From: an uncultured bacterium
Lineage (GTDB): Bacteria > Pseudomonadota > Gammaproteobacteria > Burkholderiales > SG8-39
Assembly: GCA_965233195.1 (NCBI GenBank)
Contig: CBDDSB010000013.1
Coordinates: forward strand, 2,964 to 66,963
Length of the DNA: 64,000 bases
Direction of reading: 5' to 3'
This document shows, one piece after another, positions 19,919-29,208 of the stretch. Both the position numbers and the translations under genes were made by a program. Position 1 is the stretch's first letter; each line of letters starts with the position of its first letter. The notes beneath the pieces were generated by a model, which saw only the letters and a program-made list of their open reading frames with translations, made no database searches and was not told the origin of the DNA.

Positions 19919-20665
19919 ATGAACGAGCGCGACTACCACGACCTCCACTACCAGCACGACGCGGCCAGGATCCAGGGCAGCGAGCTGTTCCGCCGCGTCC
20001 ATAAGCGCGGCGCGCTGCAGTTCCTGCAGGCTACCGGCGCCGGCCGCGCGCACCGTGTCCTGAGCCTCGGCTGCGGGGACGGGTCGATCGAGTGCCACCT
20101 CGCGCCGCATATTGCCGAGCTCGTCGGCCTCGACCTTTCGCCGGTCGCCATCGCGCGGGCGCGGGAGCGGGCCGAAGCGGCGGGCCTGCGCAACATCACG
20201 TTCGCGGTGTCGGAAGCAGGTGCTCCGCTCGAGAGCTTCGGCCGCTTCGACTTCGTCGCCGCGTTTGCGGTGCTCCATCACCTCGGGGATGCCCAGATCG
20301 TCGATACGCTGCGCGCCGCCCGCAAGGTGCTGCGCAGCGGCGGCGCGTTCTACTCCAGCGATCCCAGCCGCAGGCGCCTGGTGCGGTACTTCGCCGGACT
20401 GGTCCGCGGCACGTACGACCGCTACCACAGCCCGGACGAGCGCGAGCTCGATCCCGCGGACCTCGCCGCGCTCGCGACGGCGGCGGGCTTTTCTCAGCCG
20501 GTGATCTCCTACACGGACTATTTTCTCGGGCCGCTCGGGTGGCTGGCGCCCCGCACCCCGGAGTCGCTCGCCGCAGCGCTCGAGGCGATGGACAATCTCG
20601 CCCTGCGCGTGCCGCTGCTGCGCCGGTACGCGTCCTCCTTCAGCCTGTGCGCCACGTGCGAATGA
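19919..20665 (+). CDS. class I SAM-dependent methyltransferase
   Basis: 'RVLSLGCGDGSIECHL' (motif I), 'LVGLDLSPVAIARARE' and 'FDFVAAFAVLHHL'. Confidence 0.8.
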   Translation: MNERDYHDLHYQHDAARIQGSELFRRVHKRGALQFLQATGAGRAHRVLSLGCGDGSIECHLAPHIAELVGLDLSPVAIARARERAEAAGLRNITFAVSEAGAPLESFGRFDFVAAFAVLHHLGDAQIVDTLRAARKVLRSGGAFYSSDPSRRRLVRYFAGLVRGTYDRYHSPDERELDPADLAALATAAGFSQPVISYTDYFLGPLGWLAPRTPESLAAALEAMDNLALRVPLLRRYASSFSLCATCE

Positions 20666-27049: not shown

Positions 27050-29208
27050 GCCGGGCGCGGCCGCAGCGCAACGGACAGCAGGTAATAGGCGGTCGCCACC
27101 AGCAGCAGGTGGTTGAAGCCGAGCACGAGCGACAGATGCTCGCTCAGGCCACCGAGGATGATGCCGGCGACGTTCCAGCCGAAATCGACGTCGGGCTGCC
27201 GGCTCTCGCGGAACACGGTGGCGAAGATCACACCGGCGAAGAACACCGGCACGAAGACCACCAGGCACGAGGCGACGGTGCGCTCGAGCGGCGCCAGGGA
27301 CAGAAACAGGTTCATCGGCACCAGCGCATTGACGAGCAAAGCGGCCACCAGCAGCAGGTAATAGGGCGCCAGGCGCCCGGGCTTCGCCTTGATGACGTAG
27401 AGGTTCGCGCACAGGATCATCACCAGGATGGCGAAGAACACGATCGAATTGACGATCCAGGTGCTGCCGAAGAGCAGCGCCATGTGCACCACGCCCTTGG
27501 TCTCGAGCAGCATGAAGCCGGCGCCGAGGAAGAACATCTGCCAGTTCGGCCGCACGCGGCCCGGCGGCGCGAAGGCGAGCAGGATGGCGAGCGAGAGCAG
27601 CGCGATCACGAGCATGCCCTGGCCGATGGGCGCCCAGGGAATCGCCCGCTCCCGGAGATAGAGCTGCGGCCAGTCGTCGCTCGGCAGCCGGTCGATGCCG
27701 GCCAGATCGAGGCGCGCCGGCGCGCTGCGGAACCAGCCTTCGCTCGCCGGCGCGGCGGTCCTGAAGGCGTTGATCGCTTCGTTCATCGGCGGCTTGGGAT
27801 TGAGCCAGAAGCTCTCACCCTTCGCGAATCGCGCGCGGATCGCCTCCAGGCGCTTGGAATCGCTGCTGACGAGCAGGAAGGTGATGTGGCCGAACTGGTT
27901 GTCGCCGGGCTGGATGGTGTCGCGCTGCGGCAGCGAGATCACCAGCGGCTTCTCGCCGAACACCTCTTCGGCCATTTTTGCCAGCCGGCCGACCACCCAG
28001 CCCTGGCGATAGAAGTTGTACATCGCAAACACGCCGTCGGGCTTGAGCGTGCGCTTGACGTCCTGCAGCGCCTCGGGCGTGAACAGGAAGTTCTCCAGGC
28101 GCAGGCTGGAGTAGCCGGAATGCAGCACCAGCGAGTCGACCAGAGCGTAGACCGCGAGATCGTATTTCCGGTCGGTATTGCGCGCGAAGCTGCGACCGTC
28201 GTCGAGGTGGACGGACACCCGCGGGTCGGAATAGGGCTGGTCCGGATGCGCGCGCCGGCCGATCGCGTTGATGCGCGGGTCGATTTCGACCGCGTCGATG
28301 TGCTTCACGCCGCTGCGCAGCGCGCCGGCGACGTCGTTGCCGCTGCCCGCGCCGATGATCATCACGTCCTCGAACGGCTTGCCGCCGGCATCGCGGTTGA
28401 GCAGGTGCGGCAGGACATAGGCCACGCCGTTGTGCTCGATTTTGAGCATCTGCTGGTGGCCGATGTCGTTGGTGGCGATCTGGCCAAATGCCGGCGTGTA
28501 GGCGACCTTGTAGTAAGGCGACCAGGACACCTCCCCGTTGACGATCAGGCCATGCGAGCCGATGGCGACGAGCGTGAACACGGTGCCTGCGGCGGCGAGC
28601 TGCACCGGCTTGCGCCAGCCCGCGAAGTGCAGCATCAGCAGCACGATGGGGACGAACCAGACCGTCGGCGGCAGCTGGAGATAGCTCATCGCCGCGAAGG
28701 CGGCGATGCCGCTCAGGCTGCCGCAGATGTCCACGGTATAGGCGGCGACGCGGTCGGGAATCGCATCGAAGGCACGGCCCATTACCTGCCCGAGGCCGAC
28801 GAAGGGGAGGGCAATGAGCGCGAAGAACACGCCGCCCACCGCCCACATCGGGATGACCCAGCGGCTCGGATCGGCCGGCCGGTACTCGGTGCCGAAATAA
28901 ATCAACCCCGGCGATGTGCCCTGGTCGCCCAGGCCGATGGAGACGCTGTCCGCCCATTGCCAGTAGAGCAGGTGGGTGACGATGGCGGCTGCGCAGGCGA
29001 GCATCGCCACCGGCAGCGCCGCGGGCACGAAATTCCGCGGGCCACGCGCCGACAGCAGGCCGACGCTCATGCCGAGGAAGCTGGCGAGCAGGACGATGTT
29101 GGTGAAGAAGGTGAGGAATACCACCGTCGCGCCGAACCAGCGGATCGCCGCCAGTTCGAAAAACAGAATCAAAAAGCTGACGAGGAAAAGATCGCGCCGT
29201 GCGCTCAT
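27046..29208 (-). CDS. polytopic membrane protein with embedded spermidine-synthase-like domain (paralog of 20662..23016)
   Basis: ATG 29208 overlaps the galE stop (ATGA). N-terminal TM bundle. 'VMIIGAGSGNDVAGALRSGVKHIDAVEIDPRINAIGRR...VHLDDGRSFARNT...YDLAVYALVDS'. C-terminal TM bundle. Confidence 0.75.
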   Translation of the reverse strand: MSARRDLFLVSFLILFFELAAIRWFGATVVFLTFFTNIVLLASFLGMSVGLLSARGPRNFVPAALPVAMLACAAAIVTHLLYWQWADSVSIGLGDQGTSPGLIYFGTEYRPADPSRWVIPMWAVGGVFFALIALPFVGLGQVMGRAFDAIPDRVAAYTVDICGSLSGIAAFAAMSYLQLPPTVWFVPIVLLMLHFAGWRKPVQLAAAGTVFTLVAIGSHGLIVNGEVSWSPYYKVAYTPAFGQIATNDIGHQQMLKIEHNGVAYVLPHLLNRDAGGKPFEDVMIIGAGSGNDVAGALRSGVKHIDAVEIDPRINAIGRRAHPDQPYSDPRVSVHLDDGRSFARNTDRKYDLAVYALVDSLVLHSGYSSLRLENFLFTPEALQDVKRTLKPDGVFAMYNFYRQGWVVGRLAKMAEEVFGEKPLVISLPQRDTIQPGDNQFGHITFLLVSSDSKRLEAIRARFAKGESFWLNPKPPMNEAINAFRTAAPASEGWFRSAPARLDLAGIDRLPSDDWPQLYLRERAIPWAPIGQGMLVIALLSLAILLAFAPPGRVRPNWQMFFLGAGFMLLETKGVVHMALLFGSTWIVNSIVFFAILVMILCANLYVIKAKPGRLAPYYLLLVAALLVNALVPMNLFLSLAPLERTVASCLVVFVPVFFAGVIFATVFRESRQPDVDFGWNVAGIILGGLSEHLSLVLGFNHLLLVATAYYLLSVALRPRPA

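Follow-up and report, generated by a model that had tools for sequence, protein, structure and literature searches.

In textbook envelope biochemistry, chemistry that depends on S-adenosylmethionine (SAM) is taken to go no further than the inner face of the cytoplasmic membrane. The closest solved relatives of the soluble domain discussed here are spermidine synthases (SPDS) of the SpeE type, in which the Asp of a GGGDG motif forms a salt bridge with the aminopropyl amine of decarboxylated SAM (dcSAM) and is believed to repel SAM at its carboxylate (PMC3725402). Replacement of this Asp inactivates spermidine synthase, and together with one or two further changes it turns plant SPDS into a putrescine N-methyltransferase; in the SPDS of T. 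maritima, the analogous D101I exchange reduces kcat by a factor of about 2000 (PMC3725402). Here, we describe two proteins, A and B, whose membrane part has the predicted fold of the major facilitator superfamily (MFS) and carries an inserted SpeE-like domain. They are encoded in a stretch of 64,000 nucleotides from an uncultured bacterium of the Burkholderiales (GCA_965233195.1, contig CBDDSB010000013.1, positions 2,964 to 66,963), the whole of which is called the window below. In both proteins, the cofactor site and the catalytic Asp are conserved, the Asp that selects dcSAM is replaced, and the domain is predicted to be periplasmic. The two proteins and their parts are listed here, with transmembrane (TM) helices numbered from the N-terminus and the basis of each assignment in brackets.

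20662-23016, plus strand: protein A, 784 amino acids (aa), MFS-fold membrane protein with an inserted SpeE-like domain (open reading frame, frame plot, homologue, SpeE match in the Protein Data Bank (PDB), end-to-end alignment with the B family)
20662-21282, plus strand: A residues 1-207, TM1-6 (MFS N-bundle) and the extra TM7 (hydropathy, K/R loops, conservation)
21283-22356, plus strand: A residues 208-565, soluble SpeE-like domain, predicted periplasmic (PDB and profile matches, conservation, topology count)
22357-23016, plus strand: A residues 566-784, TM8 and TM9-14 (MFS C-bundle), with G608-x-G-F-M-x-x-E615 and R696 (hydropathy, K/R loops, conservation)
27046-29208, minus strand: protein B, 720 aa, MFS-fold membrane protein with an inserted SpeE-like domain (open reading frame, PF01564, homologue, AlphaFold2 (AF2) model)
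28549-29208, minus strand: B residues 1-220, TM1-6 (MFS N-bundle) and TM7 (AF2 helices, TM-only model, conservation)
27637-28548, minus strand: B residues 221-524, SpeE-like domain, predicted periplasmic, ending in D511-D-W-P514 (Foldseek, phmmer against the PDB, topology count)
28333-28353, minus strand: B motif I, G286-A-G-S289-G-N-D292 (alignment to 3bwb, conservation in 65 sequences)
28135-28137, minus strand: B D358, equivalent of the SpeE catalytic Asp, the first D of DxxDP (alignment, conservation)
27046-27636, minus strand: B residues 525-720, TM8 and TM9-14 (MFS C-bundle), with G562-x-G-F-M-L-x-E569, N587 and E690 (AF2 helices, conservation, TM-only model)

The G+C content of the window is about 67%, and gene calls were settled by a frame plot of third-position GC. 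For protein A, the mechanical open reading frame begins at 20092 and the coding signal only at about 20550; the ATG at 20662 is preferred, and it is backed by a homologue of the same 784 aa (P0121) that is 93% identical over 100% of the query. Protein B likewise has a homologue (P0001) that is 96% identical along the same 720 aa. Hydropathy and, for B, the AF2 model give a common layout of about seven hydrophobic helices, a soluble part of roughly 300-360 aa and about seven further helices. These data bear out an initial annotation, made from the sequence alone, which had seen two reading frames of 784 and 720 aa with one architecture. It had also called the two proteins paralogous, which holds as far as homology goes, but the relationship is distant. 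BLASTP aligns 135 aa of the central domains of A and B with 30% identity (E=7e-12); the first helix and one C-terminal helix also match, weakly and collinearly. Across a joint alignment of 85 sequences (32 A-family and 53 B-family rows), identity between the families is about 23%, and 39 columns are invariant, among them the membrane-embedded R23, Y157, D160, E569 and R643 (B numbering). Judged by these alignments, A and B are distant homologues, two diverged members of one very large uncharacterised family.

The relationship of the central domains to SpeE emerges from several comparisons. First, B matches PF01564 (7.9e-11, 42.3 bits against a gathering cut-off of 22.9) and, in a phmmer search of the PDB, the spermidine synthase of T. 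cruzi (3bwb alignment, 3.7e-8). Protein A has no match in Pfam or NCBIfam at E<=0.01, and in the PDB it matches SpeE from T. thermophilus (1uir) at 3e-5. A joint profile of A and B matched 17 PDB sequences, all of them aminopropyl transferases (SpeE chains), with a best E of 6.5e-14. Second, the AF2 model of B, with a mean predicted local distance difference test score (pLDDT) of 84.2 and a predicted TM-score (pTM) of 0.85, shows in the soluble part four beta-strands forming N-terminal beta-hairpins, a Rossmann fold and an extra C-terminal subdomain. In a Foldseek search with this part, every one of the top 50 PDB matches is a spermidine synthase (E about 1e-7, 229-316 columns). Model and alignments thus indicate that the central domains of both proteins have the SpeE fold. 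Membership among the bona fide synthases is another matter, as the equivalog cut-offs are far from being reached: B scores 36.0 bits on TIGR00417 (249.55 needed) and 44.5 on PRK00811 (260 needed), and A has no match to either. The SpeE-like motifs quoted in the initial annotation are present as written.

Conservation was assessed in 65 B-family and 32 A-family sequences, the B family being spread over at least seven phyla (Burkholderiales, Acidobacteriota, Planctomycetota, Verrucomicrobiota, Omnitrophota, Sumerlaeota, Abditibacteria). G286, G288, G290, N291, D292, D337, D358 and E372 are invariant in 65 of 65 B-family sequences, and S289 (64/65, with one Thr), E308 (64/65) and A287 (63/65) are nearly so. 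When these positions are read against SpeE, the glycine loop is G286-x-G288-x-G290 in B and residues 315-319 in A (G315-T-G-G318-G-R-D321), the ribose-binding Glu is E308 in B and E337 in A, and the adenine-binding acidic residue is D337 in B and E369 in A. The catalytic Asp, the first of the DxxDP motif, is retained and invariant (D358 in B, D390 in A), and all 32 A-family sequences were found to keep equivalents of the B cofactor-site residues along with it. Both proteins carry the signature of class I SAM methyltransferases, with GxGxG, an acidic ribose residue at the end of beta2 and an acidic residue for the adenine N6. In B, the loop that follows the catalytic Asp (358-370) is conserved in sequence and predicted to be flexible (pLDDT <50 at 357-369), like the gate loop of SpeE. 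A D542-x-x-P545 motif precedes TM8 in A, and D511-D-W-P514 closes the domain of B. As conservation of the cofactor site and the catalytic Asp extends across phyla and to both families, the domain is, on the evidence of the alignments, no dead relic. The initial annotation had reckoned with such a dead domain, and the alignment to SpeE argues otherwise.

Other residues of SpeE are lost. The Asp of GGGDG is replaced by Ser289 in B (64/65) and by Gly318 in A (31/32), while the second Asp of DxxDP has become V361 in B and A393 in A, and the Pro of this motif has gone too. Because the residue that selects dcSAM is Ser or Gly, classic aminopropyl transfer from dcSAM, which the initial annotation had put forward, appears unlikely. 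By the same residues, a SAM-type transfer of a methyl (or other alkyl) group is the more natural reading, and we infer this activity as the more likely of the two.

The membrane part of each protein comprises 14 TM helices, of which, on the simplest mapping, TM1-6 and TM9-14 form the MFS halves and TM7 and TM8 an extra pair that carries the soluble domain. A model of the TM part alone, in which B residues 1-226 were joined to residues 517-720, reached a pLDDT of 82.5 and a pTM of 0.83. Its top 50 PDB matches in Foldseek are all MFS transporters (probability 1.00, E 1e-4 to 3e-3), including SV2A, GLUT1, GlpT, URAT1, ferroportin, VMAT1/2, OxlT, EfpA, MdfA, FLVCR and PepT, with TM-scores of 0.36-0.52 over the full length and 431-522 aligned columns. 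A GT-C fold was also considered for this part and is rejected, every fold match being to an MFS protein. Comparison of the N-bundle with the C-bundle by hhalign gave a marginal result (E=0.042, probability 1.3%), so that a duplication is not shown at the sequence level.

MFS proteins follow an N-in/C-in rule. In alignment-wide counts, the short loops hold 16.9 Lys and Arg residues 'in' versus 2.6 'out' in the B family and 15.9 versus 0.5 in the A family, and the alternation holds consistently on both flanks of the soluble domain in both families. The positive-inside rule and the N-in/C-in MFS fold together place the SpeE-like domain, by prediction, on the periplasmic side. SAM and dcSAM are not expected in the periplasm, and the predicted location therefore poses a real puzzle, one that the initial annotation did not contain. 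Its suggestions that the chemistry might be coupled to transport and that the target might be periplasmic fit with the MFS fold of the TM part and with the predicted topology.

The predicted MFS cavity carries charged residues that are conserved in both families, namely E18 and R23 in TM1 and E569 in TM9. TM5 of B contributes the conserved Y157 and D160, and in the N-bundle of A the residues R31, Y140 and D143 are conserved. Protein A itself departs from its relatives at Q26 (20737-20739), where a membrane-embedded Glu of TM1 is found in 29/32 A-family sequences, in 53/53 B rows of the joint alignment and in 62/65 of the wider B set; this Gln may alter proton or cation coupling. Another feature of the membrane part is the long periplasmic loop between TM3 and TM4 of B (residues 85-120; 28849-28956, minus strand), which has the conserved motif YFGTEYRPADPSRW with F105 and P120 nearly invariant. 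Model confidence in this loop is very low (pLDDT 32-41); the loop may touch either a substrate or the SpeE-like domain.

Both genes lie in modules of glycosylation type, the remaining genes of which are the following.

13628-19911, plus strand: upstream genes of module 1, a GT2 (AglJ/DPM-like), a GT2-GtrA fusion, a TMEM260-like GT-C (693 aa) and a 626-aa polytopic protein (Pfam, NCBIfam, frame plot)
19919-20665, plus strand: class I SAM methyltransferase, 248 aa, its stop overlapping the start of A (Pfam)
23013-27049, minus strand: downstream genes of module 2, a GT4, a class I methyltransferase, a GtrA (120 aa) and a 556-aa polytopic protein (Pfam)
29205-30179, minus strand: GalE-like NAD-dependent epimerase, its stop overlapping the start of B (Pfam at 9e-62)

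Module 1 thus runs on the plus strand from the GT2 (AglJ/dolichyl-phosphate-hexose-transferase-like) through the GT2-GtrA fusion, the TMEM260-like GT-C, the 626-aa protein and the class I methyltransferase to A. Module 2, on the minus strand and convergent with it, has the order GalE, B, GT4, class I methyltransferase, GtrA, 556-aa protein. Direct reading of the sequence gives ATGA overlaps between the methyltransferase stop and the A start (20662-20665), between the GalE stop and the B start (29205-29208) and between the B stop and the GT4 start (27046-27049); the overlaps with glycosylation-type neighbours reported in the initial annotation are therefore real, and Pfam agrees on what the neighbours are.

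When 16 window proteins were compared by tblastn with 83 loci, the full module was found only in close Burkholderiales relatives, L001 and L007, and in L007 the methyltransferase and A (window 19919-23016) are missing as a two-gene cassette. An independent recurring module occurs in Acidobacteriaceae, with the order PMT_2 GT-C, DUF6311 protein, B homologue, methyltransferase, ArnC-like GT2, and with a 604-aa protein assigned by eye as carbamoyltransferase-like. One of the Acidobacteriaceae, a metagenome-assembled genome (MAG; L022), has two B-family paralogues about 2 kb apart (9854-12229 and 14275-16530; phmmer 2e-253 and 3e-94). Over the B family as a whole, a Pfam census of 118 immediate neighbours at about 70 loci from many phyla found no family with more than five members, all-versus-all clustering gave no universal partner, and the methyltransferase neighbours from different lineages are only generically related. 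A family-wide linkage to glycosylation, considered in view of the window, is rejected on the tblastn comparison, the clustering and the census. A-family homologues are either solitary or paired in tandem with a gene of the classic MFS/SpeE fusion type: on two contigs (that of P0235, and L003 at 10001-14711), the gene for a classic NF037959 protein (740-755 aa) begins no more than 25 nt after an A-like gene (50% identity), and no glycosylation genes adjoin these tandems. The glycosylation context claimed at the outset is thus real here (GT2, GT2-GtrA, GtrA, TMEM260-like GT-C, GT4, GalE and methyltransferases) and in Acidobacteriaceae, but it is lineage-specific and does not extend to the family, as the 118 neighbours show.

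These observations lead us to favour, tentatively and as somewhat short of an even chance, a mechanism in which the MFS part supplies either a SAM-type cofactor or a substrate to an alkyl transferase, probably one for methyl groups, that lies in the periplasm and acts on an envelope glycan. The SpeE-like domain would be an active alkyl transferase that acts outside the cytoplasm, more likely a methyltransferase of SAM type whose acceptor is an amine or a hydroxyl group than an enzyme that transfers aminopropyl groups. The fused MFS half, through a cavity with conserved Glu and Arg, would pass a cationic SAM-like cofactor or substrate from the cytoplasm. Since the fusion to an MFS part with an acidic cavity is obligatory and the donor is not expected in the periplasm, the transporter half suggests itself as the supplier of donor or acceptor. 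The coupling to modules for polyprenyl-phosphate sugars, GtrA and GT-C makes a periplasmic glycan or glycoconjugate of the envelope the likely acceptor in this genome. In its most specific version, the MFS half would export SAM itself (or a related sulfonium donor) straight into the periplasmic SpeE-fold transferase; we regard this as doubtful.

Several points weigh against the proposed delivery mechanism. To our knowledge, no SAM-dependent reaction has been described from the bacterial periplasm, and both SAM binding and SAM transport by A and B are things that we infer. The periplasmic topology is a prediction and not a measurement. The MFS matches of the TM part have moderate TM-scores and high root-mean-square deviations in Foldseek, and neither A nor B matches a Pfam or NCBIfam MFS model at E<=0.01. 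Furthermore, most family members have unrelated neighbours, so that the acceptor need not be a glycan. Finally, the invariant D292 of B (D321 of A), three residues past the missing Asp, might bind the amine of dcSAM in its stead, which leaves aminopropyl transfer some probability.

Among the alternatives, the one that survives best is that the SpeE-like domain is a non-catalytic module for ligand binding or gating (of a polyamine, a nucleoside or 5'-methylthioadenosine) on an MFS importer or exporter, although we consider it rather unlikely. It would be in keeping with the absence of SAM from the periplasm, the clear MFS fold, genomic contexts that are mostly not biosynthetic, and the joint loss of the putrescine distal-amine anchor and the dcSAM-selecting Asp. 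A pure binder, however, should relax the general base, and what is seen is a cofactor constellation, a catalytic Asp and a flexible loop conserved across phyla and in both families; the translational coupling to enzyme genes in this genome also speaks for catalysis.

Another alternative is the one first proposed for this locus, a membrane-anchored aminopropyl transferase that uses dcSAM on a lipid-linked or periplasmic glycan, which now looks improbable. The loss of the GGGDG Asp to Ser or Gly, a change that inactivates SPDS (PMC3725402), speaks against it, even though the closest solved relatives are all aminopropyl transferases, the catalytic Asp is kept and the invariant Asp near the glycine loop could offer a substitute anchor for an amine. 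To this are added scores of 36-44 bits on the SpeE equivalogs, with cut-offs of 250-260, and the need for dcSAM to reach the periplasm.

Finally, we give little credence to a wrong topology, with a cytoplasmic domain that methylates a lipid-linked intermediate or small molecule using ordinary SAM and an MFS part that exports or flips the product: the cofactor problem would disappear, the central loop of canonical MFS proteins is cytoplasmic and MFS lipid flippases such as LtaA exist, but TM7 and TM8 are clearly hydrophobic helices with K/R-rich loops on their far side (WRKP; PPGRVRPN), the bias in charge amounts to at least about 6-fold in both families and is consistent on both sides of the domain, and the classic L003 protein, by adding one helix after TM12, is predicted to place its domain outside as well. 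The remaining probability belongs to an explanation not yet thought of.

The family to which A and B belong is large. A search with the A+B profile returned 25,603 representatives at E<=1e-3 and 6,059 at E<=1e-30 (clusters at 50% identity), and the top 150 matches are nearly all full-length, at 780-860 aa. Within the family, the SpeE-like domain is always fused to an MFS transporter, and thousands of clusters come from soil phyla (Burkholderiales, Acidobacteriota, Planctomycetota, Verrucomicrobiota and others); Tautonia sp. JC769 (L038) is a cultured carrier. The closest homologues of A and B themselves are from uncultured soil Burkholderiales, and the sequence is present only in soil DNA metagenomes. 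Source records name these proteins 'spermidine synthase', 'SAM-dependent methyltransferase', 'predicted membrane-bound spermidine synthase' or 'hypothetical'. The initial annotation had described them as generically annotated 'fused MFS/spermidine synthase' proteins that are uncharacterised. The second part stands, a full-text literature search having found no paper on this MFS/SpeE-like family. The first does not hold to the letter: at E<=0.01, neither A nor B matches the NCBIfam model of that name, NF037959 (threshold 40 bits), on which a control, the classic protein L003:12444-14711, scores 87.7 bits. A and B are a domain-inserted version of an annotated but unstudied kind.

Some relatives are longer. 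P0299, a metagenomic protein of 1,324 aa, is an A-like protein fused to a polytopic region of about 540 aa (residues ~790-1324) that starts with HIDDAYISYRYARN and has no Pfam match; either a natural fusion with a partner resembling glycosyltransferases or an artefact of gene calling could account for it. The extensions of the long relatives P0245, P0248, P0299 and P0358 contain no Pfam domain and have no similarity to the neighbours in the window.

The wider surroundings of A and B can be described briefly. Just upstream of module 1 lie two convergent genes for TPR and GT41 (O-GlcNAc-transferase-like) proteins (8527-10638, plus strand, and 10629-12608, minus strand), with 3' ends that overlap by about 10 nt. 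With this pair included, the glycosylation island spans about 8.5-30 kb, within an otherwise ordinary Gram-negative chromosome (ValRS, PepA, LptFG, IlvBC, Sox genes). A cluster for cyclic-nucleotide signalling occupies 559-8660 and encodes a CHASE2-adenylate/guanylate cyclase, an MBL protein resembling class-II cAMP phosphodiesterases, a GAF-MshEN-T2SSE ATPase and a GAF-HD (HD_5) protein. Directly upstream of GalE and B (30176-35209, minus strand) is an efflux set of HlyD, ABC ATPase and MacB type together with a SoxB-like 5'-nucleotidase. The synteny of this set with GalE and B is kept in L001 (2861-9036), L006 and L007, and two Planctomycetota loci (L010, L012) likewise have MacB-type genes close to their B homologues.

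The polytopic proteins of 626 aa (18031-19911, plus strand) and 556 aa (23013-24683, minus strand), which flank A, match nothing in Pfam, NCBIfam or the PDB; PMT_2 at E=4.5, the best hit of the 626-aa protein, is not significant. Their layout is GT-C-like, which leaves a GT-C identity unproven, and in view of the lacking family matches this label is not given. Both are conserved in L007, a related Burkholderiales MAG, at 54-57% identity, and their homologues adjoin each other there (L007:15670-19162; compare window 18031-24683).

If the domain is active outside the cytoplasm, as the delivery mechanism proposes, it would imply that a donor can be brought across the membrane in a new way and that envelopes undergo a new class of modification after export. 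Should the export of SAM be true, these proteins would provide the first case of a SAM-dependent alkylation in the periplasm of bacteria, and they would point to a widespread, previously unseen methylation or alkylation of exported envelope glycans, lipids or proteins. An inactive domain would instead make these proteins MFS transporters with a receptor domain of a new type. Whether it is active or not, the labels 'spermidine synthase', 'SAM-dependent methyltransferase' and 'fused MFS/spermidine synthase' probably mislead the reconstruction of polyamine pathways in metagenomes.

Several known systems can be compared with A and B. With SpeE (PF01564; 1uir, 3bwb, 3o4f), they share the N-terminal beta-hairpin domain and the class I Rossmann domain, the glycine-rich loop, the ribose-binding Glu (VEID/VEIN), the adenine-binding Asp or Glu, the catalytic Asp and the flexible gate loop. 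They differ from it by Ser or Gly in place of the GGGDG Asp, by the loss of the second Asp and the Pro of DxxDP, by the extra C-terminal subdomain and the DDxP motif, and by scores far under the equivalog cut-offs. In addition, their domain forms an insert within an MFS protein, and its predicted location is the periplasm and not the cytoplasm with access to dcSAM, as would be expected of SpeE. Plant putrescine N-methyltransferase offers a precedent for the change of chemistry, as it has the SpeE fold, has lost the GGGDG Asp, has kept the catalytic Asp and has passed from aminopropyl transfer from dcSAM to methyl transfer from SAM (PMC3725402). Unlike A and B, it is a soluble, cytosolic and eukaryotic enzyme without a transporter fusion, and its replacements are Ile or Thr and not Ser or Gly with an Asp at +3.

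Precedents also exist for the membrane part. AT3-SGNH O-acetyltransferases (OafA/OatA) carry acetyl groups outward. In plants, the Golgi GoSAMTs are MFS transporters of SAM that feed lumenal polysaccharide methyltransferases (bioRxiv 10.1101/2021.07.06.451061). In both cases the logic is the one proposed here, a membrane domain that brings a cytoplasmic donor to a glycan-modifying enzyme on the far side; the folds and donors are unrelated, and the plant transporter and enzyme are separate, so that the likeness is one of analogy and not of homology. MFS proteins with additional parts, such as the bacterial POT transporters with their HA/HB hairpin, the 14-TM EfpA and SV2A with its luminal domain, likewise have a 6+6 core with two additional helices, which lie between the bundles or next to them, and in some cases a folded domain on the outer face; they belong to the Foldseek matches of the TM part. 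None of them bears an enzyme domain of Rossmann/SpeE fold, and A and B have no sequence match to the Pfam MFS families.

There is also a likeness in overall composition with the NF037959 (COG4262-type) proteins, exemplified by L003:12444-14711, although a phmmer search with A or B did not match this protein at E<=1e-3. Both kinds have an MFS-like part with E-x4-R in the first helix of each bundle and a SpeE-like domain that lacks the GGGDG Asp, has DDGR and DDxP motifs and is predicted to face outward, and both are uncharacterised. The classic proteins consist of 12 TM helices, a strongly basic loop, TM13 and a C-terminal domain, whereas in A and B the domain sits between the MFS halves on the hairpin of TM7 and TM8. 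The classic L003 protein thus reaches the same predicted outward placement of its domain by a different route.

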